Shown here piece by piece: positions 5,861 to 22,589 of a DNA stretch of 64,000 nucleotides (position 1 is the stretch's first letter; every line of letters begins with the position of its first letter). The translations under genes were made by a program, and so were the position numbers. This stretch comes from Methanobacteriota archaeon (GTDB lineage: Archaea; Thermoplasmatota; Thermoplasmata; SG8-5; DAIRED01): NCBI GenBank assembly GCA_043799545.1, contig JAZDNO010000006.1:64001-128000 (forward strand), written 5' to 3'. Below the pieces are notes generated by a model that worked only from the letters and a program-made list of their open reading frames with translations, did not search any database and was not told the DNA's origin.

Positions 5861-5961
5861 ATTCCTGTGGGGTGTAAAAAAGTTTGTCTTTTAGAGGGAA
5901 AATCGTCCAGCGCACTCGACACCTTAAAATATCGTCATCATCTATTCCCGCGCGTGGAAGC

Positions 5962-7254
5962 ATGCTAGACCCCAAGCTCGTCCGCGAGAACCCCGATGTC
6001 ATCAGACGCGACCTGGAGAAGCGCAACGACGGCGCAAAGCTTGAATTGCTGGGACAGGTCGTCGCGCAGGATGCCGAGTGGCGCAAGCTGACCGAAGAGG
6101 TCAACAATCTCAGGCACGAGAGGAACGACATCGCCAGGAAGATAGCCGAGACGAAGAAGGCAAAGGGCGACGCGACCGCACTGATGGAGAGAGCCGCAGA
6201 AATACCCAGGAAAATCGACGAGGCAGGCGCGCGCCTGGACGAGCTGAGGCACGCCGTTGACGCCGGGTTGATGAGGCTGCCGAACATCCTGCACGAGAGC
6301 GTGCCCGTGGGGAAGGACGATGTGGCAAACGTCGTCGTGATGTCGTGGGGGGAGCCCAGGGCGTTCGACTTCGAGCTGAAGAACCACGGTGAGCTGGCTG
6401 AGGCGCTGGGGCTGGCCGACTTCGACCGCGCGGCGAGGATATCCGGGGCCGGATTCAACTATCTGAAAGGCGACCTCGCGCTCCTCGACCTGGCACTGGT
6501 GAACTATGCCGTCCATTTCATGACCTCAAAGGGATACACGCTCGTGGAGCCCCCGTACATGATGCGGCGCGAGGCATACGAAGGAGTCACAGATCTTTCT
6601 GATTTCGAGAACGTGATGTACAAAATAGAGGGCGAGGATCTCTACATGATAGCAACATCCGAGCATCCGATGGCGGCTATGTACATGGGTGAAATAATCG
6701 ACGAGGACTTGCTACCCATCAAGCTCGTCGGGATGTCCCCGTGCTTCAGAAGGGAGATTGGCGCCCGCGGCGTGGACACCAAGGGCCTTTTCCGCATGCA
6801 CCAGTTCAACAAGGTGGAGCAGTTCATCTTCTGCCGTCCGGAGGACTCCTGGAAGTTCCACGAGGAGCTCCAGTCCAACAGCGAGGAGATGATAAAAGGG
6901 CTGGGCCTGCCCTTCCGCGTCGTGAACGTCTGCACCGGGGACATTGGCACGCTGGCCGCAAAGAAGTACGACATCGAGGTGTGGTTCCCCAGGCAGGGGA
7001 AGTATGGCGAGGTGACGTCGTGCTCCAACGACACCGATTACCAGGCCAGGCGCCTCGGTATAAGGTACGGAAAACACGGCGGCGAGAAGAAGGGAGTGCC
7101 GCACACCCTCAACAACACCGCAATAGCGACGTCGCGCATCATGGTCGCCATCCTTGAGAATTGCCAGAACGCGGACGGAAGCGTCACAATCCCGGAGGCT
7201 CTGCGCAAGTACATGGGCGGAAAAGATAGGATGCCGGAAGGGGGGTCGGGATGA
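5962..7254 (+). CDS. serS: Seryl-tRNA synthetase (bacterial/canonical type)
   Basis: MLDPKLVREN start, coiled-coil arm, ATSEHP, CFRREIG, HQFNKVEQF, EVTSCSN and HTLNNT class II motifs. Confidence 0.97.
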   Translation: MLDPKLVRENPDVIRRDLEKRNDGAKLELLGQVVAQDAEWRKLTEEVNNLRHERNDIARKIAETKKAKGDATALMERAAEIPRKIDEAGARLDELRHAVDAGLMRLPNILHESVPVGKDDVANVVVMSWGEPRAFDFELKNHGELAEALGLADFDRAARISGAGFNYLKGDLALLDLALVNYAVHFMTSKGYTLVEPPYMMRREAYEGVTDLSDFENVMYKIEGEDLYMIATSEHPMAAMYMGEIIDEDLLPIKLVGMSPCFRREIGARGVDTKGLFRMHQFNKVEQFIFCRPEDSWKFHEELQSNSEEMIKGLGLPFRVVNVCTGDIGTLAAKKYDIEVWFPRQGKYGEVTSCSNDTDYQARRLGIRYGKHGGEKKGVPHTLNNTAIATSRIMVAILENCQNADGSVTIPEALRKYMGGKDRMPEGGSG

Positions 7255-7814
7255 AACCTGGAACGGCAAAAGAGGCCACAGTTCAATTCCGATCCATCGA
7301 AGAGCCAGAGATAGTGAAGATCCATGGATACCAGAATGGGGATTGCAGGGAGGAACTGTCCGGCATATTCAGGTTCGAGGAACCGTGGGCTCCGATGAGC
7401 AGGGCTCAGATAAAGGAGAAGCTGGACGAGCAACGAAAGGAGCGCAGAAGCGCTTTCTTCGGCCTTTTTTTGCCCGAAGGCGAATTTGTAGGTCTGGCAT
7501 CTTTCACATCAAGGTGGGACCCTTGGTGCCCGCGCTTTGAAATCATCGTTTGGCCCGAATGCAGAAGGAAAGGCTTCGGGAGGTCGGCAGCGCAGAACAT
7601 GCTCTCAAAAATTTTCGGCGACCATTTGTCCAACGCGACATCGACCAGCGTGCCTGAGTGGTCCAAGCCGGCGCGTGCATTCGTCGAATCCCTGGGATTC
7701 AGTGCCTGCGGCCGGATGCGGCGAGCCGGCATCAGGGGCGGCAAGTTCTACGACATGGTGTGCTACGATTTACTCAAGCGGGAATATCTGGCCGGCAAGA
7801 AGGGGGTGGGGTGA
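7251..7814 (+). CDS. RimJ/RimL-type GNAT acetyltransferase (type A)
   Basis: IIVWPECRRKGFG acetyl-CoA motif, C-terminal YDMVCYDLLKREY; ATGA overlap with serS. Confidence 0.85.
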   Translation: MKPGTAKEATVQFRSIEEPEIVKIHGYQNGDCREELSGIFRFEEPWAPMSRAQIKEKLDEQRKERRSAFFGLFLPEGEFVGLASFTSRWDPWCPRFEIIVWPECRRKGFGRSAAQNMLSKIFGDHLSNATSTSVPEWSKPARAFVESLGFSACGRMRRAGIRGGKFYDMVCYDLLKREYLAGKKGVG

Positions 7815-8374
7815 TGGACGTCCTTGTCGGCAAAACGGTGCGGCTCAGGCCGATGAAGGATTCGGATTACGAATATTTCGCGTCTTTGAAGAACGACCTT
7901 CGGACGCAGGCCTGGAACCAGCGCACGCCGATGTGCAGGACCGCCCAGCAGATGAAGGAGCATTACGAGACCGAGAGGAAGAAGCCACACACCGGGGACT
8001 TTTCCATCGAGACGCTGGACGGGGCGCTCGTGGGTACGATTGGATATGGCGAGGACCCTCCTAGGCTGGCTGCCCACGTCGGCGTCATCACCGGCATGGA
8101 ACATTGGGGAAAGGGGTATGCGCTGGAGGCGCACGAACTGCTGCTGCGATTCCTATTCGAGGAAAGGGGAATCCAGGTCGTTCGCCTATGGACGCAATCT
8201 GGCAACGAGCGCGGGATAGCCGCGGCGGAGAAAATCGGGTTCAAAGTTCAGAGCCGATTCAGGGAGAACGGAATAATCGGGGGAAAGCCCGCCGACAACG
8301 TGTACATGGACATGCTGCGCGAGGAATATTTCAAAGCCAGAGGCCTCAAGGACAACCTGCCACCACGCCGCTGA
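7814..8374 (+). CDS. RimJ/RimL-type GNAT acetyltransferase (type B)
   Basis: GKTVRLRP, HWGKGYA, N.RGI..AEKIGF and MDMLREEY motifs; TGATG overlap. Confidence 0.9.
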   Translation: MDVLVGKTVRLRPMKDSDYEYFASLKNDLRTQAWNQRTPMCRTAQQMKEHYETERKKPHTGDFSIETLDGALVGTIGYGEDPPRLAAHVGVITGMEHWGKGYALEAHELLLRFLFEERGIQVVRLWTQSGNERGIAAAEKIGFKVQSRFRENGIIGGKPADNVYMDMLREEYFKARGLKDNLPPRR

Positions 8375-8420
8375 CCGGACAACCGAAGATATTTCTACCA
8401 ATTCAGGCATCGCTCGGGCG

Positions 8421-8981
8421 ATGAACGAGAATGCGAAGATGGGTCCCCGCATAGAAATCCGCTCCCTGGGGGAGCAGGAGATGGTCGAGGTCCACCGCCA
8501 GCAGAACTCGCGCTGCCTCGCAGAGCTGGCCGACTTCCTCGACGTCGAGCCGCCTTACCTCCCGCTCACGCTGGAAAAAGTCAAAAGCACGGTTGCCGAG
8601 TACAACCGCAAGGATAGGACTTACCTCTCCGGGGTTTTCACCCATGACGGACATCTCGTGGGCCTGGCATTCTACGGTGCCGAGTTCGACGCCACCTGGC
8701 CGTGGCTATCGGTCCTGATATTTCCCGAGCACAGGCGCAAAGGGTTCGGGCGCGCAGCGGCGGACGCGCTGATGGCGAAGGCGTTCGGCCAGACTCACGC
8801 CCGCTCGGCATGCTGCCATGTCCCCGGCTGGTCCGAAGCGGGGCTTGCGTTCGCCCCGAAGATGGGCTTAAGGGCGGCCGGTCGAAGCCGCCGGTCATAC
8901 TTCATCGACGGCGGGTTCGTCGACGGTTTCTTCTTCGACATCCTTCGCTCGGAGTACGCCGGAACTGGGGGGGATATATGA
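8421..8981 (+). CDS. RimJ/RimL-type GNAT acetyltransferase (type A')
   Basis: VLIFPEHRRKGFG and FFDILRSEY; parallels 7251-7814 (PW, VP.WS, GR.RR). Confidence 0.85.
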   Translation: MNENAKMGPRIEIRSLGEQEMVEVHRQQNSRCLAELADFLDVEPPYLPLTLEKVKSTVAEYNRKDRTYLSGVFTHDGHLVGLAFYGAEFDATWPWLSVLIFPEHRRKGFGRAAADALMAKAFGQTHARSACCHVPGWSEAGLAFAPKMGLRAAGRSRRSYFIDGGFVDGFFFDILRSEYAGTGGDI

Positions 8982-9538
8982 TGGAACTGTTCGAGGGGAA
9001 GCTGGTCCGCCTGAGGCCATACCGGGACGGGGACTTGGGGTACTTTTCCGGGCTCAGGAACGACATGCGCACCCAGGGCTGGAACCAGAGGATGCCGCCC
9101 CGGGCGACGCCGGAGAGCACCCGCGAGAGGCTGGAGGACCGCCAGAAGAACCAGCACTCGGCAGTCCTCGCAATAGAGACGCTTGACGGAAAGCTCGTGG
9201 GCTACGTCACATACGAAGAGGGCCCCATGCGCCTGAAGGCTATGCTCGGCGCCATAACGGGGCCGGAGCACTGGGGCAAAGGATATGCCCGCGAGGCTCA
9301 GGAGCTGATGATGAAGTTCCTCTTCGAGGACCGCGGAATCCAGGTCATCTACCTATGGACGACGTCGTGGAACGAGAAGGCCGTGCACGGCGCGGCGAAG
9401 CTTGGCTTCAAACCCGCCGTTCGGTTGAGGGAGGCCACGGTGATGGACGGCAAGCGCCACGATGCGATAATAATGGACATGGTGCGCGAGGAGTACTACG
9501 CCGTCAGAGGGCTGAAGGACCCGCTCAGCGGCATCTGA
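8978..9538 (+). CDS. RimJ/RimL-type GNAT acetyltransferase (type B')
   Basis: GKLVRLRP, NDMRTQGWNQRMP, HWGKGYA and MDMVREEY; clear paralog of 7814-8374. Confidence 0.9.
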   Translation: MMELFEGKLVRLRPYRDGDLGYFSGLRNDMRTQGWNQRMPPRATPESTRERLEDRQKNQHSAVLAIETLDGKLVGYVTYEEGPMRLKAMLGAITGPEHWGKGYAREAQELMMKFLFEDRGIQVIYLWTTSWNEKAVHGAAKLGFKPAVRLREATVMDGKRHDAIIMDMVREEYYAVRGLKDPLSGI

Positions 9539-9541: not shown

Positions 9542-10144
9542 TCAATTGCCGCTCTTCAGGGTCGGCAAGACCTTCACGAGCCCGGTGTCCAAATCGTATA
9601 TCGCGCCAGCCACCCGCGTCCCCTTCTCCCGCACGAGCTTTCCCAGCGGGGTCTTCGGAGACGAAATCCTCGCCACGAGCATCTCGGTGCTCACTTTGAC
9701 CGCGTTGGAGACAAGGTCTCCTTGCATCGCCCTCGCCTTTTCCACCGCCGGCGCAATGGCGGCCATCACATGGCTGAGGTGCCCTGAGGCTTTGTCTCCC
9801 CTGGCGGCAGCTTCCAAAGCTCCGCATTTGGTATGTCCCAGGACCAGGACGAGGGGGACGCGCAGGTGTCCCACAGCGTATTCCAGGGATCCGAAGGACA
9901 TCGCGTCCATCGCGCTCCCGGCCGTCCGGACGACAAAGATGTTGCCGAGCGTCTGGTCGAAAATCAGCTCCGGCGGGACTCGGGAGTCCGAGCAGGCGAC
10001 GATTGCGGCAAAGGGATTCTGGCCGCCGGACACCTGCTCCCGTCTTATCTGCATGGAAACCGAGAATGTGGACTCGCCTGCAACGAAGCGTTTGTTGCCG
10101 TCAAGCAGCTCCTTGATTGCCTGCGTCGCGGTGCGCGAACTCAT
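9542..10144 (-). CDS. Beta-class carbonic anhydrase
   Basis: CSDSRVP, FVVRTAG and LGHTKCGA zinc-ligand motifs. Confidence 0.93.
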   Translation of the reverse strand: MSSRTATQAIKELLDGNKRFVAGESTFSVSMQIRREQVSGGQNPFAAIVACSDSRVPPELIFDQTLGNIFVVRTAGSAMDAMSFGSLEYAVGHLRVPLVLVLGHTKCGALEAAARGDKASGHLSHVMAAIAPAVEKARAMQGDLVSNAVKVSTEMLVARISSPKTPLGKLVREKGTRVAGAIYDLDTGLVKVLPTLKSGN

Positions 10145-10908
10145 CGGTACATCCCCGGGGGCGCGTCCGGCATCTCGGGCTGCGCCAGGGGCTTGATCTG
10201 GGCAATCGCCTTCCTGACCTGCGCCTCGATTGCAATAGCTTGCCCCAGCAGGGGCTTCGGGTCAATCTCGATCTGCGGTATCATCTTGTTGAGAACAGTG
10301 AGCACCTGCGCCGCGGATCGGCTGTCGGGATATTCTGCGTGTGCCTCCACCAGAAGACACACGACATCGAAGTCTGCGAAGTTGCCTTTGTATAACAAGA
10401 GCCCTGACAGGCCGCTCACCATGCCCGTCAACAGCGGCTCGGTACCGAGGTCTTTCAGGTGCCCGTTGGAACCCGGAGTGCTTCCCACATGGAATATCTT
10501 AACTGGGTCCTTGGGGAGATCTGTGCTGTTGACCCCCTCGACAGCCACGACGATATGGCATTTCCTCTCCATGCACCAATCTATTATCTTGTCGGCCAGC
10601 GGAGCGATCAGGCCCGCCTTGATGGGCAGCTCGGACGTGATGACCACAAGCTGATTGCACGCCCCCTTCGGGCCGCAAACGTGGTCGCCGGCGTAGATGC
10701 GCACGGGCGGCATGGGAACGCCGTCCTGGACTATTGCCGCCGGGTAGAAATCATCTGAGGCGAAAGAGCCGACGAGCTCGAGTTTCAGGTTGGTGACCAT
10801 GAAGTTCGCGGCTATCGTGCTGACCAGGCCTATCGTCGGAAAGCTGACGACGACCATCGAGTTCGTCAAATCCTTCGTCATGTAATCGTGAACAGATATG
10901 GAGTTCAT
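10141..10908 (-). CDS. PAC2-family proteasome assembly chaperone/activator-like protein
   Basis: FPTIGLVSTIAANF, PPVRIY, GLSGLLL and PDSRSAA motifs; C-terminus ...MYR fits HbYX. Confidence 0.85.
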   Translation of the reverse strand: MNSISVHDYMTKDLTNSMVVVSFPTIGLVSTIAANFMVTNLKLELVGSFASDDFYPAAIVQDGVPMPPVRIYAGDHVCGPKGACNQLVVITSELPIKAGLIAPLADKIIDWCMERKCHIVVAVEGVNSTDLPKDPVKIFHVGSTPGSNGHLKDLGTEPLLTGMVSGLSGLLLYKGNFADFDVVCLLVEAHAEYPDSRSAAQVLTVLNKMIPQIEIDPKPLLGQAIAIEAQVRKAIAQIKPLAQPEMPDAPPGMYR

Positions 10909-10970
10909 GCGGCACCAGGGGGATGAGACAGTCGCCGATTAAGAGCTTTGCGGAGGAAGCCTGCCAAATC

Positions 10971-11016
10971 AATTTGTTATATATTGTAATAATACTTTGT
11001 AATATTGTTTTTTATA
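10971..11016 (+). promoter_or_regulatory. AT-rich promoter/operator region of the hybrid hydrogenase operon
   Basis: TTGTWATA at 10974, 10984 and 10997 followed by TTTTTTATA, in an otherwise GC-rich genome. Confidence 0.5.
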
Positions 11017-11060
11017 CTCACTCTCGGATTTGCCGTTGGCTCGACCCAGGAGTTAAGTCC

Positions 11061-12782
11061 ATGAAGCCCAAGGTAGCGGTGTTCGACTTCGCAAGCTGCG
11101 AAGGCTGCGAACTGCAGATCGCGAATCTCGAGGAGCAGGTAATCGACCTAGTCGGCGCGGTCGACATAGTCTCCTTCAGGGAGGTCATGAAGGAGCACTC
11201 GGACGATTACGACATCGCGTTCATTGAGGGCTCGATAAACCGACCTCTGGACGAGGAGCGGTTGAAGAAGATTCGGTCTCGCGCGAAGGTCCTCATCGCC
11301 ATGGGCGACTGCGCCTGCACGGGCTGTGTCAACAAGCTGAGGAACCAGTGGACGGTCGAGGAGGTCAAGAAAGAGGTGTATCCAGACGCGGCGGCGCAGA
11401 TGAAGGGCAACGAGCTCTTCGACATCTTTCCGACGAAGGCCATCGACGAAGTCGTGAAGGTGGATTTCTACATCCGCGGCTGCCCGATTCGGAAGGAGCA
11501 GTTCATCTATTACGTCAACAGGTTCGCGACCATGCCCCCGAGGAAGAACATGAACCTGCGCTTCAAGATCACCGAAAGGGAGATGGAGTCCGACCCCCGC
11601 TCGGTAATCCACTACGACCCGCAGAAGTGCATTCTTTGTAGGCACTGCCAGATAATATGCAACGACGTTCTTGACGTGCACGCCATCGGCATATCGGAGA
11701 AGGGGAACGAATCCATCATCTCCACGCCTTTTGAGAAAGGGCTGGAGGCCAACAACTGCATCAAGTGCGGCCAATGCCTCGTCAATTGCCCGGTCGGAGC
11801 GTTTTCGGAGAGCGCGGGAGTCGAAAAGGCCAAGGCGCTCATCGAGGACCCGAAGAATTACGTCATCCTGGTCATAGACCCGATTGCGATGGCCTCGGCA
11901 ATGGAGGGGATGATGACGTCGGAGACGCAGCTGGGGCCGGTGATTAGGAGGACGATATCGGCGTTCAGGAAGCTCGGCGTCAAGAGGGTGCTCGATTTCA
12001 CAAACTTCACGTACCTCTCAATCGCGGCGCAGGGCGAGCACATCAGGAACCACCACGAGATGAGCTTCGCATCATGGTGTCCGAGCGCCAGTATTTTCGT
12101 GAAGAAGTTCTATCCGCAGTTCAAGAAGTACCTGCACCCAGAATTCGAACCAGTTAACATCATGGCAGACCAGCTGAGGGCCAAGTACGGCAAGAAGAAT
12201 CTGAAGATAGTGCTTGTGAGCCCATGCATCGTGCACAAGGGCAACGAAAGCATCGACGCAGTGCTGACCGCCAGGGAGCTGCCGAGGCTCCTGAAATCAT
12301 GCGAGCTCGACATCGATTTCTTCCCTGCCGAAGGGGTGGACTTCGACACCGAGTGCTCCATGACGACGACGTTCCTCAGCGGGGCCAGGAACGACCACAC
12401 TTACTCCGTGCAGATGCTTGAAGCTGCGTACTATGGCAAATTCAAGAACCTCGATTCGGCGCTCGACATCAAGACCATCGGCGACTACGCCCACGAACTG
12501 ACCTTCGACAGCGAGGAGGGCTTCTTCAACGCCCTCGTCATCGAAGACATAGCAAAGACCAGCAAGTACCTCGAGAAGGACATAAGGAAGTACAACATCG
12601 TCGAGCTTTACCCGTGCTACTGGGGGTGCGTCACCGGCGGCGGGCAGACGCTGACGACTTCGTTGGCTGTGCTGGAGCACAGGATGGCTTTGCTGAAGGA
12701 GTACAAGGGAACGATAAAAGACCATGGCAAATTCATAGCCCAGATGATTGCCGGGTACGAACAGTGCAAGAGGGGTGAGTAA
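11061..12782 (+). CDS. Hybrid hydrogenase subunit: [NiFe] small-subunit N-domain + 2x[4Fe-4S] + [FeFe] H-cluster-like domain
   Basis: SCEGC/EGS/GDCAC/RGCP (group 3 small subunit), CILCRHC..C and CIKCGQC..NCP ferredoxin, then ASWCP, SPCIVHK and ELYPCYWGCVTGGGQ (H-cluster P1-P3-like). Confidence 0.88.
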   Translation: MKPKVAVFDFASCEGCELQIANLEEQVIDLVGAVDIVSFREVMKEHSDDYDIAFIEGSINRPLDEERLKKIRSRAKVLIAMGDCACTGCVNKLRNQWTVEEVKKEVYPDAAAQMKGNELFDIFPTKAIDEVVKVDFYIRGCPIRKEQFIYYVNRFATMPPRKNMNLRFKITEREMESDPRSVIHYDPQKCILCRHCQIICNDVLDVHAIGISEKGNESIISTPFEKGLEANNCIKCGQCLVNCPVGAFSESAGVEKAKALIEDPKNYVILVIDPIAMASAMEGMMTSETQLGPVIRRTISAFRKLGVKRVLDFTNFTYLSIAAQGEHIRNHHEMSFASWCPSASIFVKKFYPQFKKYLHPEFEPVNIMADQLRAKYGKKNLKIVLVSPCIVHKGNESIDAVLTARELPRLLKSCELDIDFFPAEGVDFDTECSMTTTFLSGARNDHTYSVQMLEAAYYGKFKNLDSALDIKTIGDYAHELTFDSEEGFFNALVIEDIAKTSKYLEKDIRKYNIVELYPCYWGCVTGGGQTLTTSLAVLEHRMALLKEYKGTIKDHGKFIAQMIAGYEQCKRGE

Positions 12783-13256
12783 ATGGACGTCAAGGACAGG
12801 TTCGTAATCGACACGGTTCTGGAGAAGTACAAAGGGGTCCGGGACCCCGCCCTCATAATACTCCAGAATATCCAGGCCGTCCTCGGATACGTCGGGAAGG
12901 ATTACCTGGAGTACGTCGCCGAGAAGACCGATTACTCCCTCACGGAATTGTACGGCATAGTCACATTCTATCCGTCGTTCAGGCTGGAGCCACCGGGGAA
13001 GCACACAATCAAAGTCTGCCAGGGGACGGCCTGCCACGTCCGGGGCGGGGAGAAGGTGCTGAAGGCGGTGGAGGAGCTGCTGGAAATCAAGCCCGGCGGG
13101 ACGACCAAAGACCGGCTTTTCTCGCTGGAATCGGTCCGGTGCCTCGGCTGCTGCGGCCTCTCGCCAGTCATAATGATAGACAACGAAACTTACGGGCGGG
13201 TAAAACCCGCCAAGCTCAATGAAATCCTGACCAAATACGGGGAGGCGGGCGAATGA
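12783..13256 (+). CDS. NuoE/HydC-like [2Fe-2S] subunit
   Basis: TFYPSF, VCQGTACHVRG and VRCLGCCGLSP. Confidence 0.93.
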   Translation: MDVKDRFVIDTVLEKYKGVRDPALIILQNIQAVLGYVGKDYLEYVAEKTDYSLTELYGIVTFYPSFRLEPPGKHTIKVCQGTACHVRGGEKVLKAVEELLEIKPGGTTKDRLFSLESVRCLGCCGLSPVIMIDNETYGRVKPAKLNEILTKYGEAGE

Positions 13257-16200
13257 AGATAAAGAGGAAGTTCGACCTGGAGGACCTGGCCAAGGCGGGT
13301 TTGGCCGACATGAACAGCGAGAACCCGCAGCTGATTTTCGGTCTGGCGACTTGCGGAATCGCGGCCGGCGGGATGCCGCTCAAGGAATACGCCGAGGAAT
13401 ACCTGTCGGTTAAAAACCCCAACGCCGAGATAGTCTCAGTGGGCTGCATCGGCATGTGCCACGCGGAACCGCTGGTGGACGTCAAGCTGCCGGGGAGGCC
13501 GAGGGTCACGTACCACAATATGACGGTTGAGAAGTTGAAGCGGGTCATGGACGAGCATCTTCTCGGGGGAAAGCCGGCCAAGGACCTGGCGCTGGCCCAG
13601 CTATCGGAGGAGATGTCCGAGTGCGTCGACGGCGTCCTGAAGTTCGACTCGAAATACGAGGGGATTCCGACCTATCGGGAGCTGCCCTTCTTCACCAAAC
13701 AGAAGAGGATTGTCCTGAGAAACTGCGGGATAGTCAATCCCGAAAGCCTGAAGGAGTACATTGCCAGGGGCGGCTACAAGAGCGCGTTCGCGATGCTTCA
13801 GGAGATGAAGCCCGAAGAGGTCATCGGCATCGTGAAGAAATCCGGCATAAGGGGCAGGGGCGGGGCGGGTTTCCCGACGGGGCTGAAGTGGGAGCTGTGC
13901 GCCAAAGCGCCTGGGGACGTGAAGTACATCATATGCAACGCGGACGAGGGCGACCCTGGCGCGTACATGGACCGGGCCGTGCTCGAAGGGGACCCGCACA
14001 GCGTCATCGAGGGGATGATAATCGGCGCCTACGCCATGGGCGCGTCAGAGGGCTTCGTCTACGTTAGGACGGAGTATCCGCTCGCCATCAAGCATTTGAA
14101 GCTGGCATTGGCCCAGGCTGAGAGCCACGGGCTCCTCGGCGAGAGAATTCTGGGAACGGACTTCAACTTCCAGATACACATCCGGGAAGGGGCGGGCGTG
14201 TTCGTCTGCGGCGAGGAGACGGCGCTCATGCATTCGATAGAAGGCAAGCGCGGGGAGCCGAGGCCCAGGCCGCCGTTCCCGGCGTCCAGCGGCCTGTGGG
14301 GCAAGCCCACCAACATCAACAATGTCGAGACGTGGGCCAACATCCCGCTCATCATGCAGAGGGGCGGGGCCTGGTTCGCGAAAATCGGGACCGAGAAGAG
14401 CACAGGGACGAAAGTATTCTCCCTTGTCGGCAAGATAAACCGGGCTGGCCTGGTGGAGGTGCCCGCGGGCATACCCCTGAAGGACATAGTGCACGAGATG
14501 GGGGGCGGTTGCCCCGACGGGAGGAAGGTCAAGGCCGTGCAGACGGGCGGGCCGTCCGGCGGTTGCATACCCGTCGAGCATCTGGACGTCACGGTGGATT
14601 ACGAGAACCTGAAGGCGCTGGGCTCCATCGTTGGGTCCGGTGGAATGGTCGTAATGGACGAGGACACGTGCATGGTCGACGTGGCTAGGTACTTCCTCTC
14701 TTTCACATCCGAAGAATCTTGCGGGAAATGCACTCCCTGCCGCGTCGGAACCAAGAGGATGCTGGAGCTGCTCCAGAAGATATGCCACGGCCAAGGCACT
14801 CCAGAGGATGTGCAGGTATTGGAGAACCTGTCCATCCAGGTGAGGGATGCGTCGCTTTGCGCGCTCGGCGGCACCGCGCCGAACCCGGTCCTCACCACTC
14901 TGAAATACTTCAGGCACGAGTACATGTCCCACGTCGAGGACGGCAAGTGCAAGGCGAGCGTGTGCGCGGCCATGTTCAAGTCGCCGTGCCAGAACACCTG
15001 CCCGGCCGGCACGAACGTCCCGGGATACATCCAGCTGATAAACGAGGGCAAGCTCGTTGAGGCCTACCAGGTGAACCTCGAGAACAACCCGTTCCCCTCG
15101 GTTTGCGGGCGCGTTTGCGAGCACCCATGCGAGGCAAGGTGCCAGCGCGGCCAGCTGGACGAGTCGATTGCCATCAGGGACCTTAAGAGGGTATGCTCCG
15201 ACGGCTTCGCCAAGTCCAAGAAGGCGCCGAAGGTTTCGAAGCTCAAACCCGTGGGGAAGAAGGTCGCCATAGTCGGCGGCGGGCCGTCGGGCATGTCGGC
15301 GGCGTACTTCCTCGCCCGCCTGGGCTACTTGCCGACCGTGTTCGAATCGGCCGAGAGGGCGGGGGGCTGGATGCGCTACGGGATACCGCGCTACAGGCTG
15401 CCGCACGAGGTGATCGACCGGGAGATAAAGAACATCGTCGACCTGGGCGTGGAATTGAAGACCGGCGTCGCCGTAGGCAGGGACGTGACTTTGCCCGAAC
15501 TCAAGAAGAAGTATGACGCGGTGTACCTAGCCATCGGGGCACAGCTCGATAAAAAGCTCGGGCTGGAGGGCGAGGACCTGCCCGGCGTGTTGCCAGGGCT
15601 CCAGGTGTTGAGGGATGTCAACGGCGGCAAGAAGGTCGACATCGGAAGGCACACGCTCATCATCGGTGGGGGCAACGTCGCTGTGGACGTGGCAAGAACC
15701 GCCGTGCGTGTGGGCGCCAAGGTGACGATTTGCTACAGGCGCGAGGAGCAGGACATGCCCGCCTACCGTGAAGAGGTAGAGCAGTGCAAGCAGGAGGGCG
15801 TCACTTACCACTTCCTCGTGGCGCCGGAGAAGCTAATCGTCCAGAAGGGAAGGGTCGTCGGAGCAGTGTTCAGGAAGAACTCGATTGGGGAGTTCAACAA
15901 GCACGGCCGCAGGGCGCCGGTGCCGACGGAAGAGACGCTGGAGGTCAAGGCCGACAGCATCATCGTGGCCATCGGGCAGGACGTCGACGAAGGCTTCGCA
16001 AAGGGATTCGACGGCGCGATTCTGGGCAAGGGCAAGCTCGTCGAGACCAAGAAAGGCCTGGCGACTAGCGACCCTAAGGTATTCGCCGGAGGGGACGCGG
16101 TCCTGGGGCCGGCGAGCGTCATCGAGGCCATAGGCCACGGAAAGCAGGCCGCGAGGAGCATCGACGCGATGCTCAGCGGGAAAGACAGGTTCCCCGAGCT

Positions 16201-16402
16201 GGAAGAGCACAACTTCGCGGGCTATTCCATGGCGGAGCCCAAGAACGAGCAGGAGATGCCGCGCCAGCATTCGGCGGAGGCCGAGGCTGCCAAGCGGATG
16301 TGCGGCTTCGACGAGGTGGTGATGTGCCTGGACGCGAAATGCGCCAAGAAAGAATCATCGAGATGTCTGAGGTGTGACCTCAGCGCAGTGGGGGATGATT
16401 AG
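13253..16402 (+). CDS. NuoF/HydB-like diaphorase fused to a GltD-like FAD/NAD(P)H domain
   Basis: GRGGAGFPTG, CNADEGDPG, CGEETAL and ESCGKCTPC, then CQNTCPAG, CGRVCEHPCE, GGGPSG, GGGNVAVD and AGGDAV. Confidence 0.93.
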   Translation: MKIKRKFDLEDLAKAGLADMNSENPQLIFGLATCGIAAGGMPLKEYAEEYLSVKNPNAEIVSVGCIGMCHAEPLVDVKLPGRPRVTYHNMTVEKLKRVMDEHLLGGKPAKDLALAQLSEEMSECVDGVLKFDSKYEGIPTYRELPFFTKQKRIVLRNCGIVNPESLKEYIARGGYKSAFAMLQEMKPEEVIGIVKKSGIRGRGGAGFPTGLKWELCAKAPGDVKYIICNADEGDPGAYMDRAVLEGDPHSVIEGMIIGAYAMGASEGFVYVRTEYPLAIKHLKLALAQAESHGLLGERILGTDFNFQIHIREGAGVFVCGEETALMHSIEGKRGEPRPRPPFPASSGLWGKPTNINNVETWANIPLIMQRGGAWFAKIGTEKSTGTKVFSLVGKINRAGLVEVPAGIPLKDIVHEMGGGCPDGRKVKAVQTGGPSGGCIPVEHLDVTVDYENLKALGSIVGSGGMVVMDEDTCMVDVARYFLSFTSEESCGKCTPCRVGTKRMLELLQKICHGQGTPEDVQVLENLSIQVRDASLCALGGTAPNPVLTTLKYFRHEYMSHVEDGKCKASVCAAMFKSPCQNTCPAGTNVPGYIQLINEGKLVEAYQVNLENNPFPSVCGRVCEHPCEARCQRGQLDESIAIRDLKRVCSDGFAKSKKAPKVSKLKPVGKKVAIVGGGPSGMSAAYFLARLGYLPTVFESAERAGGWMRYGIPRYRLPHEVIDREIKNIVDLGVELKTGVAVGRDVTLPELKKKYDAVYLAIGAQLDKKLGLEGEDLPGVLPGLQVLRDVNGGKKVDIGRHTLIIGGGNVAVDVARTAVRVGAKVTICYRREEQDMPAYREEVEQCKQEGVTYHFLVAPEKLIVQKGRVVGAVFRKNSIGEFNKHGRRAPVPTEETLEVKADSIIVAIGQDVDEGFAKGFDGAILGKGKLVETKKGLATSDPKVFAGGDAVLGPASVIEAIGHGKQAARSIDAMLSGKDRFPELEEHNFAGYSMAEPKNEQEMPRQHSAEAEAAKRMCGFDEVVMCLDAKCAKKESSRCLRCDLSAVGDD

Positions 16403-17083
16403 ATGCCTTCAGGCGTGATGATTGAGATTGTAGTTGACGGCAAGAAGATACATTGCCAGCCTAACCAGACGGTGCTGGAAGTCGCCAAGGCGAACAACAT
16501 CAGCATCCCGACGATGTGCCTGAACCCTCTGTTTCCGGGGCACAAGGTGGGTGCGTGCAGGATGTGCCTCGTGGAGATAACGGGGGGCGGGAGGCCTGGG
16601 CTGCAACCGAGCTGCACGCTGCCTGTCTCGTCGGGTCTGGCCATGTCCACATGCAGCGATGCAGTGTACAACGCCAGGCGGACTGTGGTGGAGCTGATGC
16701 TGACGGAGCACGTGCAGAAATGCCGCGACTGCCCCATCAGCGGTGACTGCAACTTCGCCAGGCTGTGCAGGGACTACGACGTCAACGGCGTCCCGGTCTG
16801 CGCGGAATGCCCCAACCAGAGGGAGGGCTGCCTGCTCAAGCGCGGAGTCCTCTGCGTCGGGCCGATAACGTACGCCAACTGCAACGCCTACTGCACCCGG
16901 CAGGGGTACAGATGCGAGGGTTGCCACTCCGTGATGGTGCACGACGACATACTGAAGTTCGGCATCAGGGCATTCAAGGACGCTGGCTTCAAGGCCAAGG
17001 ACATAGTGGAGGCAGCGAAAGTCTTCTCGTACGACAGCGTCAAAAGGGTCGAGAAGGCGCTGAAAGAGGAGGGGATGAAATGA
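16403..17083 (+). CDS. [2Fe-2S] + His-ligated [4Fe-4S] (NuoG/HydA N-type) domain fused to [NiFe] small-subunit C-terminal domain
   Basis: IPTMC, GACRMCLVE, QPSC and HVQKCRDC..GDC, then PVCAEC..GCL..GVLCVGPIT.ANCNAYC..G..CEGC. Confidence 0.85.
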   Translation: MPSGVMIEIVVDGKKIHCQPNQTVLEVAKANNISIPTMCLNPLFPGHKVGACRMCLVEITGGGRPGLQPSCTLPVSSGLAMSTCSDAVYNARRTVVELMLTEHVQKCRDCPISGDCNFARLCRDYDVNGVPVCAECPNQREGCLLKRGVLCVGPITYANCNAYCTRQGYRCEGCHSVMVHDDILKFGIRAFKDAGFKAKDIVEAAKVFSYDSVKRVEKALKEEGMK

Positions 17084-18375
17084 GCGAAAAGAACGTCCGC
17101 GTTGAGCATCTGACAAGGGTGGAGGGGCATGGCAACATCATCCTCAACTCCAAGAACGGCAAGTTGGAGAAGGTGGTCTGGGAGGTCTCGGAGGCTCCGA
17201 GGCTTTTCGAGGCCTTCGTGAGGGGGAAGCCCTATAGCCAGCTCGCGCAAATCACATCGAGGATATGCGGGATATGCTCCATCGGTCACACGATGGCATC
17301 TCTGAAGGCGACGGAGGCGGCGATGGGGATTGAAATATCCGAGCAGAGCGAGAAGCTCAGGCGGCTCGCGATGCACGGGGAGAACCTCCAGAGCCACGTT
17401 CTTCACGTGGGATACCTCGTCGCTCCAGACCTGTTCGGCGTGGGCAGCGTCGTTCCGCTAGTCGGAACCCACACCGACACCGTCCTGGCGATAATCAAAC
17501 TGCACAAGACGGCGAACGAGTTCTCGGACATGATATGCGGCCGGACGACGCACCCGACCAACCTGGTTCCAGGCGGGCTGTGGAAAACGCCCTCGCCACT
17601 GAAGCTTAGGAGCATGAGGCAGAAGCTCCTGGAGATGGTGCCTACGGCGAATGCTGTCGCCGAGGTGGTGCTGGCAAATGCGGGAGCCCTGCCGAATTTC
17701 ACGAGGGAGACGGAATTCATCGGCTTGGTGTCCAAGGACGAGTACGCGCTCTACGACGGCGACGTCGGCTCGACGGACGGCGGAACCTTCCCCGTGTCGT
17801 CGTACAGGACGATAGTCAACGAGTTCGTAGTACCCCAGTCCACCGCGAAGTACACGAAGCACAAGCGCGACTCTTTCATGGTCGGAGCCCTGGCCAGGTA
17901 CAACCTCAACTCCAAGAAGTTGTCTCCGATGGCGAAGGATTGGGCGGACAGGTTCGGCCTCAAACCGGTATGCCACAACCCGTTCATGAACAACGTGGCC
18001 CAGCTGGTCGAGGTGTTCAATTCCGTCGAGGATTCGATCGCGATAATCGACAGCCTGCTCGGCAAGTACGCCGACGAGCCCAGGCCAAAGATTAAACCGA
18101 AGGCCGGGAGCGGCGTTGGGGCGGTGGAGGTTCCGCGCGGTATACTCTTCCACGACTACACGTACGATGCCAACGGCCTGTGCACCAAGGCGAACTGCGT
18201 CATACCGACGAACCAGAACCACAACAACATCCAAAAGGACATGGAGGCGTTCGCGCCCACGCTCCTCGACAGGCCGGAAAAGGAGATCGAGCTAAACCTC
18301 GAGATGCTCGTGCGCGCCTACGACCCGTGCATCTCCTGCTCGACGCATTATTTAAAGGTCAAATTCGTGCGTTGA
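17080..18375 (+). CDS. [NiFe]-hydrogenase large subunit, group 3b-like (copy 1, hybrid operon)
   Basis: RVEGHG, L1 RICGICSIGH, EVPRG and L2 DPCISCSTH plus C-terminal extension. Confidence 0.95.
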   Translation: MSEKNVRVEHLTRVEGHGNIILNSKNGKLEKVVWEVSEAPRLFEAFVRGKPYSQLAQITSRICGICSIGHTMASLKATEAAMGIEISEQSEKLRRLAMHGENLQSHVLHVGYLVAPDLFGVGSVVPLVGTHTDTVLAIIKLHKTANEFSDMICGRTTHPTNLVPGGLWKTPSPLKLRSMRQKLLEMVPTANAVAEVVLANAGALPNFTRETEFIGLVSKDEYALYDGDVGSTDGGTFPVSSYRTIVNEFVVPQSTAKYTKHKRDSFMVGALARYNLNSKKLSPMAKDWADRFGLKPVCHNPFMNNVAQLVEVFNSVEDSIAIIDSLLGKYADEPRPKIKPKAGSGVGAVEVPRGILFHDYTYDANGLCTKANCVIPTNQNHNNIQKDMEAFAPTLLDRPEKEIELNLEMLVRAYDPCISCSTHYLKVKFVR

Positions 18376-18592: not shown

Positions 18593-20521
18593 TTGAAGAT
18601 AATACAAAAGGATGATTTCAAAGGGTTTGTGAACGCGCTGATAAAGGACAGCGGCATGGACGTTGAAGGCGTGAAGGCGAAGGGCCCGAAGTTCGCCTTC
18701 GGGCCGCTGGACAGCGCCGACGAGCTCAGGCTCGATTACGACGTCACGCTCCTGCCCCCGAAAAAGTATTTCCTGCCTCAGTACGAACAGTTGATGACCT
18801 TCGATTTGTCGAGCCCGTTCTCTGTCACCAGAGCCGAATACCCGCGCCGCAAGCTCATCATCGGCGTTCATCCCTACGATATTGTCGCGATTAGGCAGAT
18901 GGATAGCTATTTCCTCGACACGGATGTATCGGCCAGCTACCTCAGGAGGAAGAAGAACATACTCATCATCGGCTGCGATGTCATGCGCGTGCAGGACAAG
19001 GCCTTCTTCGGCTCGATGGGCACGGGGATGGTGCATTCTGGATACGACCTCTTCCTGACCGACCTGGGCGAGAAGGTGGCCATCGAGGTCGGAACTGAAG
19101 CGGGAAGCGACCTGCTCAGGTTCGCGACGAATGTGAGGGAGGCCACCCCGGTCGAGGTCCAGAAGGTCAAGGCGATGAGGGAGGCCACCGCGCTGAAGGC
19201 GACGCGCGGCCTGATGGTGAAGCCGAATGGCTGGCACGACCTGCTGGAGAAGGACTACGAGAGCGAGGTCTGGAAGAAGCAATCCGACAAATGCCTGGCT
19301 TGCGGCACGTGCACGCTGGTCTGCCCGACGTGCTTCTGCTACGACGTCAAGGACGACATACACCTGACTTTAAAGACAGGCGAACGGTCTAGGACGTGGG
19401 ACGGTTGCTTGCTCCGCCGGTTCACCGAGATAGGGTCCGGGGAGATATTCAGGGACGACATCCTCGACAGGTACAGGCACAGGATTCACAGGAAGGGTCG
19501 GTACCTCCCCGACCGATTGGGGTTCGTAGCCTGCGTGGGATGCGGTCGCTGCTCGAGCCAGTGCGTCCCGGACATTGCAGACCCGGTCAACCTAATTAAC
19601 ATGCTGTTCGAGGCGTCGCCGCACCTGGTAACCGATTCGCTTTCCGACCCGCACACCGTGAAGACAGACTTCACGAATCTCCCCGAGGGCGACACGGCCA
19701 AGATGCTCCACATGCCTGTGCCGGCAACCATCAATAGGGTTGAGAAGCTCACGGCGAAGGAGACTCTGTTCGAGATATCTCTCGACGACGGGAAGGCGCT
19801 CGGTCACGTGCCCGGCCAGTTCGTCGAGGTCTCAATCGCCGGCATGGGAGAATCCCCGATATCCGTTTCGTCAGCGCCGGGAACCAAGACCTTCGAGCTG
19901 GTAGTCAGGAAGGTCGGAGACGTCACGAGCAAGCTCCACACCATGAAGGCGGGAGATAAAATAGGAATCCGCGGGCCGTTCGGAAAGGGCTTCGACACCG
20001 AGGGTTTGAAGGGGAAGAACCTGCTCTTCATCGGGGCTGGCCTGGGCATGGTCCCGATGCGCTCCTTCATCAACCACGTGCTCAACAACCGCAAGGACTA
20101 CGGCGAGGTGACGATACTCTATGGATGCAAGGAACCGTGCGAGATGCTCTTCGCCAAGGAAATAGGGTCATGGGGGAAGCGCGATGACATACAGCACAAG
20201 AGGGCTGTCGACAAGTGCCCCGAAGGAGCGTGCTGGGACGGCGAGATAGGCGTCATAACGACGTTGCTGCCGAAGGTCAAATTCGATCCCAAGACGACGG
20301 TCGCCATCGTCGTCGGACCTCCGATCGTCTACAAATTCGTGAACAGGGACCTGCTCAAGCTCGGTGTGCCTGAGGAGAACATCGTCGTCTCCCTCGAAAG
20401 GCGCATGAAGTGCGGCGTCGGCAAGTGCGGGCACTGCCAGATGAACGGCATCTACGTATGCAAGGAAGGGCCAGTGTTCAATCTAAAGGACCTTAAGGGC
20501 GTGCAGGAGGCGTTCGAATGA
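18593..20521 (+). CDS. Group 3b (sulfhydrogenase-type) beta+gamma fusion: [4Fe-4S] subunit fused to FAD/NAD(P) subunit
   Basis: TTG start after GGAGGTG; CLACGTCTLVCPTCFC and CVGCGRC, then PGQF, GPFGKGF, GAGLG and ERRMKCGVGKCGHC. Confidence 0.92.
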   Translation: MKIIQKDDFKGFVNALIKDSGMDVEGVKAKGPKFAFGPLDSADELRLDYDVTLLPPKKYFLPQYEQLMTFDLSSPFSVTRAEYPRRKLIIGVHPYDIVAIRQMDSYFLDTDVSASYLRRKKNILIIGCDVMRVQDKAFFGSMGTGMVHSGYDLFLTDLGEKVAIEVGTEAGSDLLRFATNVREATPVEVQKVKAMREATALKATRGLMVKPNGWHDLLEKDYESEVWKKQSDKCLACGTCTLVCPTCFCYDVKDDIHLTLKTGERSRTWDGCLLRRFTEIGSGEIFRDDILDRYRHRIHRKGRYLPDRLGFVACVGCGRCSSQCVPDIADPVNLINMLFEASPHLVTDSLSDPHTVKTDFTNLPEGDTAKMLHMPVPATINRVEKLTAKETLFEISLDDGKALGHVPGQFVEVSIAGMGESPISVSSAPGTKTFELVVRKVGDVTSKLHTMKAGDKIGIRGPFGKGFDTEGLKGKNLLFIGAGLGMVPMRSFINHVLNNRKDYGEVTILYGCKEPCEMLFAKEIGSWGKRDDIQHKRAVDKCPEGACWDGEIGVITTLLPKVKFDPKTTVAIVVGPPIVYKFVNRDLLKLGVPEENIVVSLERRMKCGVGKCGHCQMNGIYVCKEGPVFNLKDLKGVQEAFE

Positions 20522-21294
20522 CCAAACCGCGAGTTGCGTTCTTCGACTTCTCGAGCTGCGAGGGCTGCCAGCTCCAGGTCGTCAACCTGGAGGAGGCCAT
20601 ACTGGATGTCGTCGGGCTCGTCGACATAGTCGAATTCAGGGAGGCCATGAAAGAATCCTCGACAGAATACGACATTGCAATTATCGAGGGGTCCATCGCA
20701 CGGCCGATGGACGTCGAGAGGATAAAGAAGATTAGGGAGAGGGCAAAGGTGCTAATCGCACTCGGGGCATGCGCCCACCTCGGCGGAGTACAGAGGATGG
20801 GCAACAAATGGACCGCTGAGGAGAACAAGGCAGAAGTCTATGCGAGACACCCCGGCTCCGAGGTGACAAAGGGCGATGCCAACCCCTATTTCGACCAGCC
20901 CAGGCACAGGGCCGTGGACGAGATTGTCAAAGTGGACTACACGATTCCGGGATGCCCCATAGACTCGAACGAGTTTGCGAAGGTTCTGATTGCTCTCCTG
21001 ACGGGCAAGAAGCCGCCTATTCCAGACTACCCAGTTTGCGTGGAGTGCAAGAAGAACGAGAACATCTGCCTCTTCACCATCGGGCAGTTCTGCATGGGGC
21101 CGATAGCTAGGGCCGGATGCGGCGCGATATGCCCGACCCACGGCGGCGAGTGCGAGGCGTGCCGAGGGTACGTGGACCACCCGCACACGCAAGCCCAGAC
21201 GGAAGTGCTAAAGAAGCACGGGCTGACGGTGGACGAAATCATGAACAGGAAGACAATGTACACTCACCGCTACGTCGAGGAGGGGAAACAATGA
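20518..21294 (+). CDS. Group 3b [NiFe]-hydrogenase small (delta) subunit, intact
   Basis: SSCEGC, EGS, GACA, PGCP, PVCVEC and CMGPIARAGCGAICP..CEAC. Confidence 0.94.
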   Translation: MTKPRVAFFDFSSCEGCQLQVVNLEEAILDVVGLVDIVEFREAMKESSTEYDIAIIEGSIARPMDVERIKKIRERAKVLIALGACAHLGGVQRMGNKWTAEENKAEVYARHPGSEVTKGDANPYFDQPRHRAVDEIVKVDYTIPGCPIDSNEFAKVLIALLTGKKPPIPDYPVCVECKKNENICLFTIGQFCMGPIARAGCGAICPTHGGECEACRGYVDHPHTQAQTEVLKKHGLTVDEIMNRKTMYTHRYVEEGKQ

Positions 21295-22589
21295 GCAACG
21301 TCAACATCAACGTCGAGCACCTGACAAGGGTCGAGGGCCACGGCAACATTGTGCTGAACGCGAAGGACGGCAAAATCGAGAAGGTGCAGTGGCAGGTTTC
21401 CGAGGCCCCGCGCTTCTTCGAATCGTTCGTCAGGGGGAGGCCATACAACGAGCTCAGCCACATCACCTCTAGGATTTGCGGCATCTGCTCCATCGGGCAT
21501 TCGCTCGCCTCCCTAAAGGCCACAGAAGCCGCAATGGGCATCCATACTTCGGAGCAGACCGAGATTCTCAGGCGGCTCGCGATACACGCGGAGAACATTC
21601 AGAGCCACGTTCTTCATGTGGGCTACCTGGTCGCTCCCGACTTGCTGGGGGCGCCGAGTGTGATTCCTCTTGCGGGCACGCACACTGGCGCAGTTCTGAA
21701 AATCGTCGGGTTGCACCGCTTGGCTAACGAGTACTCCAACATGATTTGCGGAAGGACAGTCCACCCGATCAGCCTCATCCCGGGCGGCTTCAGTCACATC
21801 CCTTCCGAGAAGCAGCTTAAGGGACTGAGGAAGAAGATTGCAGATGCGGTTCCTGATGTCGTCGCAGTCGCGGAGATAGTTCTGGCAAACGCGCACAAGC
21901 TACCGAACTTCTCTCGCGAAACGGAGTTCATAGCCCTCACGGCAGACGACGAATATGCCATCTACGACGGGGACATGGGCTCGACGGACGGCGGTCGCTG
22001 GCCGGTCGACAAATACCTTGAAATTACCAACGAATTCGTGGTCCCGCATTCGACGGCAAAGTTCACTAGGCACAAGCGCGAATCGTACATGGTCGGGGCG
22101 CTCGCACGCTTCAACCTCAACTACGACAAGCTGACCCCGGGGGCAAAGGAATGGGCCGGGAAATTCGGCCTGAAGCCAGTCAACCACAACCCGTTCATGA
22201 ACAGCGTCGCGCAGCTCGTGGAAACCGTGCACAGCTTCGAGGACTCGATAGCGCAAATCGACAAACTCATCGGGATGGGAATCGACGTCAACGAGAGGCC
22301 GAAGTTCGCAGTCAAGGCCGGTCATGGCGTGGGTGCGGTGGACGTGCCGAGGGGAATCCTCTTCCATGATTACACATACAACGACAAGGGCATTTGCACT
22401 AAAGCCAACTGCATCATCCCCACCAACCAGAACCACAACAACATAAACCAGGACTTCAAAGCGTTCGCGCCGACGATAATCGACAAGCCAGAGAAGGAAA
22501 TCGAGCTTCTGATGGAAATGCTGGTTCGCGCGTACGACCCGTGCATCTCCTGCTCGACGCACTACCTTGACGTGAAATTCGTGCGTTGA
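21291..22589 (+). CDS. [NiFe]-hydrogenase large (alpha) subunit, group 3b (copy 2)
   Basis: RVEGHG, RICGICSIGH, DVPRG and DPCISCSTHYLDVKFVR. Confidence 0.95.
   Translation: MSNVNINVEHLTRVEGHGNIVLNAKDGKIEKVQWQVSEAPRFFESFVRGRPYNELSHITSRICGICSIGHSLASLKATEAAMGIHTSEQTEILRRLAIHAENIQSHVLHVGYLVAPDLLGAPSVIPLAGTHTGAVLKIVGLHRLANEYSNMICGRTVHPISLIPGGFSHIPSEKQLKGLRKKIADAVPDVVAVAEIVLANAHKLPNFSRETEFIALTADDEYAIYDGDMGSTDGGRWPVDKYLEITNEFVVPHSTAKFTRHKRESYMVGALARFNLNYDKLTPGAKEWAGKFGLKPVNHNPFMNSVAQLVETVHSFEDSIAQIDKLIGMGIDVNERPKFAVKAGHGVGAVDVPRGILFHDYTYNDKGICTKANCIIPTNQNHNNINQDFKAFAPTIIDKPEKEIELLMEMLVRAYDPCISCSTHYLDVKFVR

Follow-up and report, generated by a model that had tools for sequence, protein, structure and literature searches.

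A group F/3f hybrid [NiFe]-[FeFe] hydrogenase operon in a Thermoplasmata archaeon, with a paralogous group-3b-like hydrogenase operon in tandem

Hybrid [NiFe]-[FeFe] hydrogenases carry two unrelated H2-converting metal centres in one complex and count among the biggest recent surprises of hydrogen metabolism. Greening et al. (2024, Cell) described a HydA-HyhS fusion encoded together with HydC, HydB, HydD and HyhL and classified it as group F [FeFe] and group 3f [NiFe] hydrogenase (PMC11216029). The hybrids were reported in 21 archaeal genomes, with the CxxxC pair of the H-cluster serving as filter, and the complex of Thermoplasmatota UBA147 was modelled by AlphaFold; one of two fusions from Thermoplasmata SG8-5 (Th1, in lysate) made H2 once it was loaded with synthetic [2Fe]adt (PMC11216029). 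No further paper on HyhS, group 3f or hybrid hydrogenases came up when the later literature was searched. Here we describe an operon of this kind at positions 11061-18375 of the window, by which we mean the whole stretch of 64,000 nucleotides (nt) analysed on contig JAZDNO010000006.1 of a Thermoplasmata archaeon. Two further described systems matter for the comparison. The Bfu bifurcating enzymes are defined by a Cys3-His-Cys site, a flavin mononucleotide (FMN)/NAD(H) site and the NuoE-like BfuC (PMC9304861), and NfnABC is a Bfu-type NADPH:ferredoxin/NAD transhydrogenase that oxidises NADPH and whose sole flavin adenine dinucleotide (FAD) is held by NfnA (PMC11829005).

The operon consists of five plus-strand open reading frames (ORFs; 11061-12782, 12783-13256, 13253-16402, 16403-17083 and 17080-18375), which encode the HydA-HyhS fusion of 573 amino acids (aa), HydC, HydB, HydD and HyhL in this order. 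The gene junctions are 0, -4, 0 and -4 nt from 5' to 3', which is the usual mark of translational coupling within one operon. A first-pass annotation had read the stretch as a fusion, NuoE, NuoF-GltD, an Fe-S subunit and a [NiFe] large subunit, had described the fusion as a [NiFe] small-subunit N-domain joined to a 2x[4Fe-4S] and an [FeFe] H-cluster-like domain, and had placed it in the published group F class. ORFs, domain matches and PDB comparisons agree with the gene content and with the make-up of the fusion, and the class stands as well, the arrangement being the one described in the 2024 paper (PMC11216029).

Aligned over 572 residues, the fusion shares 78% identity with its counterpart in Methanomassiliicoccales archaeon UBA147 (locus L009). 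In the genome collection its nearest relatives come from a Thermoplasmatota metagenome-assembled genome (MAG; 89%), a Thermoplasmata MAG (78%) and UBA147. The UBA147 contig carries the same downstream genes up to its end, that is HydC and the first 433 residues of HydB, and the gene order of the window operon is the same as in loci L007-L028. As in group F/3f, an N-terminal small-subunit part and a C-terminal HydA part are fused and HydC, HydB, HydD and HyhL follow contiguously; the four H-cluster cysteines including the CxxxC pair are present, along with both [NiFe] CxxC pairs. The H-domain falls into the same well-supported clade as UBA147 (the 'long' clade, see below), so that the phylogenetic placement with group F holds by proxy, from this clade and the 78% identity, and not on the reference tree of the paper itself. 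Same architecture, same gene order and the identity to UBA147 make the locus a new member of the published class and no new kind of system.

What the window shares with the UBA147 hybrid are the five genes and their order, the fusion, a GltA/GltD-like module on HydB, and a HydD that is NuoG-like in one part and small-subunit-like in the other. It differs in belonging to another species and in its downstream flank, where a paralogous hydrogenase of group-3b-like type and a maturation protease directly follow; no further difference in kind was found. The coordinates of all features are collected in Table 1.

Table 1. Features of the hybrid hydrogenase operon and its downstream neighbour (positions in the window).
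Feature	Position	Strand	Basis
Putative promoter and 5' leader	10967-11060	+	Sequence itself, from which promoter function is presumed
Fusion residues 1-156, [NiFe] small-subunit N-domain, proximal [4Fe-4S] ligands C13, C16, C84, C141	11061-11528	+	Pfam Oxidored_q6
Fusion residues 157-262, linker and 2x[4Fe-4S] ferredoxin-like domain (HydA F-clusters)	11529-11846	+	Pfam Fer4_7, Fer4_9
Fusion residues 263-573, [FeFe] H-cluster domain	11847-12782	+	Pfam Fe_hyd_lg_C
HydC, NuoE/BfuC-like thioredoxin-like [2Fe-2S] subunit, 157 aa	12783-13256	+	Pfam 2Fe-2S_thioredx, E 6.4e-47
HydB residues 1-560, N-terminal [2Fe-2S] and NuoF/BfuB core, FMN and NAD(H) site	13253-14932	+	Pfam Complex1_51K, NADH_4Fe-4S
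HydB residues 561-1049, GltD/NfnA-like module: 2x[4Fe-4S], FAD, NAD(P)H Rossmann fold	14933-16402	+	Pfam Fer4_20, Pyr_redox_2
HydD residues 1-130, HydA/NuoG N-terminus ([2Fe-2S] and His-ligated [4Fe-4S])	16403-16792	+	Pfam Fer2_4, NADH-G_4Fe-4S_3
HydD residues 131-226, C-terminal half of [NiFe] small subunit (8 Cys; medial and distal [4Fe-4S])	16793-17083	+	NCBIfam HydD, ShyD delta
HyhL, [NiFe] large subunit, 431 aa	17080-18375	+	Pfam NiFeSe_Hases
Second [NiFe] hydrogenase, group-3b-like: fused beta-gamma 18593-20521, delta 20518-21294, alpha 21291-22589	18593-22589	+	Pfam, NCBIfam
[NiFe] maturation endopeptidase, just downstream of both large subunits	22594-23181	+	PF01750; TIGR00072 129 bits, above cut-off

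The fusion gave Pfam matches to Oxidored_q6 at residues 13-152 (E 2.7e-25) and to Fe_hyd_lg_C at residues 278-527 (E 1.6e-23, 84 bits against a cut-off of 22), whereas the 4Fe-4S dicluster match at residues 189-247 was, unlike these two, not well above its cut-off. In the PDB comparison residues 3-156 resemble residues 3-150 of the delta subunit of Pyrococcus furiosus sulfhydrogenase I (SHI; E 7.5e-21), and residues 164-542 resemble residues 120-519 of the bifurcating HydA1 of T. kivui (PDB 8a6t; E 1.7e-42). Within the small-subunit N-domain C13, C84 and C141 are invariant across the family, and the ferredoxin-like domain has eight invariant cysteines (C190, C193, C196, C200, C233, C236, C239 and C243). 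The H-cluster motifs are SWCP (C340), SPCIVHK (C389) and PCYWGCVTGGGQ (C519, C523). These four cysteines align with the H-cluster ligands of the T. kivui and T. maritima HydA, and an alignment of 53 relatives shows them to be invariant together with W339 and GGG. An AlphaFold2 model of the fusion with 53 relatives as input reached a mean predicted local distance difference test (pLDDT) score of 84.9, with more than 90 over most of the H-domain, and a Foldseek search of the PDB returned T. maritima HydA on top (E 2e-25), followed by T. kivui HydA and CpI of C. pasteurianum (to E 1e-21). The C-terminal domain is hence modelled with an H-cluster fold.

The subunit between HydB and HyhL, called an Fe-S subunit in the first-pass annotation, is present in the operon, but the description was incomplete as this 226-aa protein is a chimera that also holds the C-terminal half of the [NiFe] small subunit. 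The N-half of HydD (residues 7-135) resembles residues 7-128 of A. woodii HydA1 (E 8.9e-21) and residues 4-123 of Acetomicrobium mobile HydA. Residues 130-220 resemble residues 160-252 of SHI delta (E about 4e-13); this C-half covers profile positions of about 160-250 in the NCBIfam HydD/ShyD delta models, and its cysteine pattern aligns with the delta subunit of the neighbouring group-3b-like hydrogenase (E 4e-11). HyhL carries its CxxC pairs in RICGICSIGH near the N-terminus and in DPCISCSTH, followed by an 8-residue tail, at the C-terminus. Both in NCBIfam and in the PDB it scores best with alpha subunits of group 3b (ShyA, 257 bits; 9nez_D, E 2.9e-65), and it was aligned to SHI alpha of P. 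furiosus. We thus find HydA cut at about residue 120-130 and the small subunit cut at about residue 150-160, with the halves rejoined reciprocally in the fusion and in HydD. As neither hydrogenase is complete without the polypeptide of the other, the reciprocal split is strong internal evidence for one enzyme made from the five genes. A small-subunit template was used for part of HydD in the 2024 model (PMC11216029), and the split small subunit was therefore already implicit in that paper.

HydC scored about 139 bits with the NCBIfam NuoE, HoxE and FdhC-gamma models. HydB is a 1049-aa NuoF+GltD protein, and the NuoF part finds its best PDB match in the NiFe-HydB of the electron-bifurcating A. 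mobile enzyme (7t2r_B, E 2e-214). In the alignment to 7t2r_B the five B2-site ligands of A. mobile HydB (C438, C476, H525, C531 and C536) are all kept, and from this match and the five signature ligands it follows that the complex has a BfuB/BfuC core. The homology to A. mobile HydB stops at A. mobile residue 542, where the window protein continues as a GltD-type Fer4_20 two-cluster domain, and the GltD module thus stands, in the sequence, where BfuB subunits usually end in a 2x[4Fe-4S] ferredoxin-like domain (clusters B3 and B4, leading to ferredoxin). With 525 bits this part exceeds the cut-off of the NCBIfam model PRK12771, and its best match is the GltD-like region of NfnA, which binds FAD and NADPH (9n5u_A, residues 105-503, E 1.4e-108). 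Because of the likeness to NfnA we read the module as an NADP(H) site, which may also take ferredoxin via its two [4Fe-4S] clusters.

Among the other described systems, the A. mobile NiFe-HydABCSL (7t2r) shares with the window operon the HydB with Bfu ligands, the NuoE-like HydC, and group 3 [NiFe] large and small subunits along with HydA-type clusters. However, the A. mobile type has a HydA without H-cluster ligands and an intact, separate small subunit HydS, neither of which was found in the window, where the ligands are kept and the small subunit is split; further, A. mobile HydB ends in a ferredoxin domain and window HydB in the GltD module. HydB and HydC are also homologous to those of the group A3 HydABC enzymes (T. 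kivui 8a6t, T. maritima 7p5h, A. woodii 7q4v), and the ferredoxin (Fd) and H-domains plus the N-half of HydD are colinear with one group A3 HydA, the break lying at about HydA residues 120-130. In contrast to group A3, the window HydA is split, its pocket residues are changed and a [NiFe] module is added. The fusion scored far below the group A cut-offs of NCBIfam (154 against 765 bits for FeFe_hydrog_A6, 128 against 406 bits for TIGR02512), and where canonical group A proteins have TSCCP, MPCxxK and ExMxCxxGC it reads SWCP, SPCIVHK and ELYPCYWGC.

On the [NiFe] side, SHI alpha is the best match to HyhL, and SHI delta is the best match to each half of the small subunit. Group 3b sulfhydrogenases such as P. 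furiosus SHI and SHII are alpha-beta-gamma-delta heterotetramers; in the hybrid the small subunit is split and fused. Beta and gamma subunits are absent from 11061-18375, and the ShyA score of HyhL lies below the equivalog cut-off of 700 bits. For the NuoF part of HydB, NfnB of NfnABC (9n5u) ranks second among the matches (E 2e-211). The GltD-like module sits on the A subunit in NfnABC and on the C-terminus of the B subunit in the window, where the third arm is a hydrogenase.

We conclude that 11061-18375 is very probably a group F/3f hybrid operon whose five genes would most likely encode one soluble complex of the Bfu (HydABC-type) bifurcating family. Homology and the published AlphaFold model of the orthologue point to a single five-subunit complex. 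We infer its wiring, including the direction of electron flow and the third substrate, from domain homology. One arm would lead from the [NiFe] site of HyhL to the proximal [4Fe-4S] cluster on the N-domain of the fusion and on to the medial and distal clusters on the C-half of HydD, the other from the H-cluster domain of the fusion to its two F-clusters. Both arms would converge at the HydA/NuoG-type clusters of the HydD N-half, from where the HydB/HydC core with FMN and NAD(H) would be reached. The GltD/NfnA-like module on HydB may act as a third site, for NADP(H) and/or ferredoxin; the 2024 paper proposed ferredoxin as third substrate (PMC11216029). Such a complex would most likely work reversibly as an H2:NAD(P)+/ferredoxin oxidoreductase, activating H2 in two arms that meet on HydD. 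It would also fit the 'redox valve' idea, according to which the [FeFe] site evolves H2 and the [NiFe] site consumes it (PMC11216029).

Several points weigh against this reading. HydE and HydG were not found in the source genome, which is 94% complete (2.06 Mb in 31 contigs, 0.85% contaminated). Four matches to HydF were confined to the GTPase domain (23-35 bits against a cut-off of 326) and were not counted as HydF. The residues of the di-iron pocket differ from the canonical ones in the alignment: TSCCP has become SWCP, with the proton-relay Cys replaced by Trp (W339), MPCxxK has become SPCIVHK, with the Lys moved one position, ExMxC has become ELYPC and the Gln of SPQQ is Val. In CpI numbering, these changes include Met353 to Ser, Met497 to Tyr and Gln325 to Val, and an Asp stands at the position of CpI Ala230. 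Finally, the H-domain diverges fastest of the operon parts across relatives.

The missing maturases, the altered pocket and the fast divergence keep one alternative alive, namely that the same complex forms but that H2 is turned over in vivo at the [NiFe] site alone, with an H-domain that holds just a [4Fe-4S] cubane and serves as an electron relay or scaffold. For the maturases, the genome does contain genes for [NiFe] maturation (HypD and two maturation proteases of the HycI family), and the Balneolales-labelled locus L023 has hypF, hypD and hypE beside the operon and no [FeFe] maturases there; yet HydEFG are also absent from most archaea whose [FeFe] hydrogenases are active (PMC11216029), and the missing maturases agree with that picture. 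Within the domain itself, second-sphere replacements such as the bulky Trp at the position of the proton-relay Cys speak for a cubane, while neither the four cluster cysteines, including the bridging one, nor the GGG loop vary across about 85 protein clusters. The H-domain is only 24% identical in loci where HyhL is 77% identical, but its resemblance to true HydA is strong (E 1e-42). A cubane in place of the H-cluster has a precedent in the HydA of the A. mobile NiFe-Bfu enzyme (PMC9304861), which the fusion resembles in the ferredoxin domain only, and a group F fusion made H2 after loading with [2Fe]adt (PMC11216029). On balance we find this alternative unlikely, though still to be taken seriously, and we prefer the reading with two active sites, in which the H-domain would acquire its di-iron subcluster even though the known maturases did not turn up in the genome.

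Like the sensory [FeFe] hydrogenases of groups C and D, the H-domain might instead be an H2 or redox sensor that regulates a [NiFe]-Bfu enzyme, in which case there would be no second catalytic site. The proton-relay Cys is missing in the sensory groups too, and distant fusion relatives with a Planctomycetota label among them (P0065 and P0081) carry histidine-kinase and response-regulator domains. Pfam and NCBIfam, however, gave no PAS, kinase or other signalling domain in the window fusion; its H-domain is hard-wired by the F-clusters into an electron-transfer chain, and a group F fusion evolved appreciable H2 in lysate (PMC11216029). We regard a sensor as improbable here. As an observation in its own right, P0065 (869 aa) and P0081 (859 aa) are 37-44% identical to the fusion and have HATPase_c and response-regulator domains, one of the two being labelled Planctomycetota, and this architecture suggests a sensory use of the same module.

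That the fusion is an artefact of assembly or gene calling, or that two separate enzymes lie side by side, is hardly credible: although the source is a metagenome-type assembly of 31 contigs, the same fusion with the same junction recurs in about 85 protein clusters from independent assemblies and the five-gene order is kept on more than 20 independent contigs, so the junction is not misassembled, and with the small subunit and HydA each divided between the fusion and HydD neither hydrogenase would be complete alone.

The start of the fusion was placed at 11061. An AGGAG ribosome-binding site lies at 11048-11052, 8 nt before this ATG, a TATA-like AT-rich stretch lies at 10967-11016, and the homologues are mostly 569-593 aa long with alignments beginning at the same N-terminal residues as the 573-aa form; together these observations show the 573-aa reading to be correct. 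An upstream ATG at 10923, which would give 619 aa, was discarded, as the extension would cover the TATA-like stretch.

Across the family the fusions fall into two classes, a 'long' one of about 570 aa, to which the window and UBA147 belong, and a 'short' one of about 495-510 aa. Between the classes the H-domains are 20-26% identical and the small-subunit N-domains 58-82%. In the H-domain tree long and short are separated with full support and by a very long branch, whereas in the N-domain tree they are interleaved, and the approximately unbiased (AU) test rejects a single 'long' clade (log-likelihood difference 225, p 3.3e-5); these trees are quick searches on short alignments, and rate differences could contribute to the conflict. 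The same contrast appears domain by domain (Table 2): the [NiFe] parts of short-class loci are about as near to the window as those of long-class loci, while the internal parts are all clearly further away.

Table 2. Identity to the window, by domain, of short-class loci L013-L024 (Balneolales and related) and long-class loci L011/L012.
Part	Domain	Short class	Long class
[NiFe]	Small-subunit N-half	72-81%	72%
[NiFe]	HydD C-half	63-77%	69-70%
[NiFe]	HyhL	76-78%	75-76%
Internal	Fd domain	54-58%	72%
Internal	H-domain	21-29%	51-52%
Internal	HydC	44-48%	70%
Internal	HydB NuoF part	64-67%	73%
Internal	HydB GltD part	50-53%	64-65%
Internal	HydD N-half	52-58%	72-73%

The switch in identity lies inside HydD, at the domain boundary. 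The small-subunit N-domain, the HydD C-half and HyhL form one co-evolving set; a second one, apart from it, comprises the Fd domain and the H-domain of the fusion together with HydC, HydB and the N-half of HydD. We tentatively suggest a mosaic, with separate histories for its [NiFe] 'frame' and for the [FeFe]-diaphorase cassette inside it, the deeply divergent long and short cassettes having been exchanged on closely related frames, including those on bacterial-labelled contigs, but we give this somewhat less than even chances. The gene order of the cassette looks like a circularly permuted hydCBA operon inserted in the small-subunit gene. If true, the mosaic would call for a change to two published views, one that has the small-subunit domain co-evolving mainly with the [FeFe] part and one that confines the hybrids to archaea; the conflict between the modules, if confirmed, bears on how two hydrogenase superfamilies were joined. 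Beyond the first-pass annotation, the analysis thus adds the split small subunit, the conflicting histories of the [NiFe] and the [FeFe]-diaphorase parts, and a downstream operon 71% identical to the hybrid one in its large subunit.

Hybrids were described as archaeal in the 2024 paper (PMC11216029). We found complete five-gene operons of the short class on MAG contigs with bacterial labels from several studies (loci L013, L014, L016 and L018-L024). The labels are Balneolales, Balneolaceae, Cyclonatronaceae and Gammaproteobacteria, and the HyhL proteins are 76-78% identical to that of the window. In the Balneolales-labelled locus L023 (1205-7449) the genes just upstream of the hybrid operon are hypF, hypD, hypE and a gene like plant-type ferredoxin-NADP reductase; [FeFe] maturase genes were not seen in this flank. 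Among archaea, the full-length fusion is present in 8 of the 21 sampled genomes of the same order and in none of the 19 sampled from other orders of the same class.

The operon directly downstream has the subunit set of a group 3b hydrogenase, with scores under the equivalog cut-offs. Identity to the hybrid operon amounts to 71% between its alpha subunit and HyhL and to 58% between the N-domains of its delta subunit and of the fusion. Five or more relatives, spread over four families of the same order, also have the tandem of hybrid and group-3b-like operons. A recent gene conversion between HyhL and the neighbouring alpha gene was considered and is unsupported: the two genes share 71% of their nucleotides over the whole length and 85% over the final 47 nt (18329-18375), the longest identical run is 29 nt, and HyhL is closer to its orthologues in other genomes (75-92%) than to the paralogue in its own (71%). 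The endopeptidase that follows is the better-scoring of the two HycI-family matches of the genome.

These two operons encode the only [NiFe] hydrogenases found in the genome. A third NiFeSe_Hases match, on contig C2 (L089), is the NuoD/FpoD of a nuoB-C-D-H cluster and no hydrogenase. This Nuo/Fpo-like cluster lies at about 126700-129900 of contig C2, and the second, weaker HycI-family protease match is about 2.4 kb away from it. McrA was not found in the genome; the organism, a relative of UBA147 among the Thermoplasmata, is non-methanogenic. Being near-complete and of low contamination, with the hybrid, the paralogous group-3b-like enzyme and the protease in tandem, the genome is a clean case, useful for phylogenetic profiling of an alternative route of H-cluster maturation and for the choice of expression constructs.

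On the upstream side, the promoter-like intergenic region separates the hybrid operon from a divergent gene of the PAC2 family, which starts at 10908 on the minus strand. This gene (proteasome assembly chaperone-like) and one for a beta-class carbonic anhydrase occupy 9542-10908, both divergent to the operon. Further upstream, at 5884-9538, a seryl-tRNA synthetase gene is followed by GNAT acetyltransferase genes (Acetyltransf_3).

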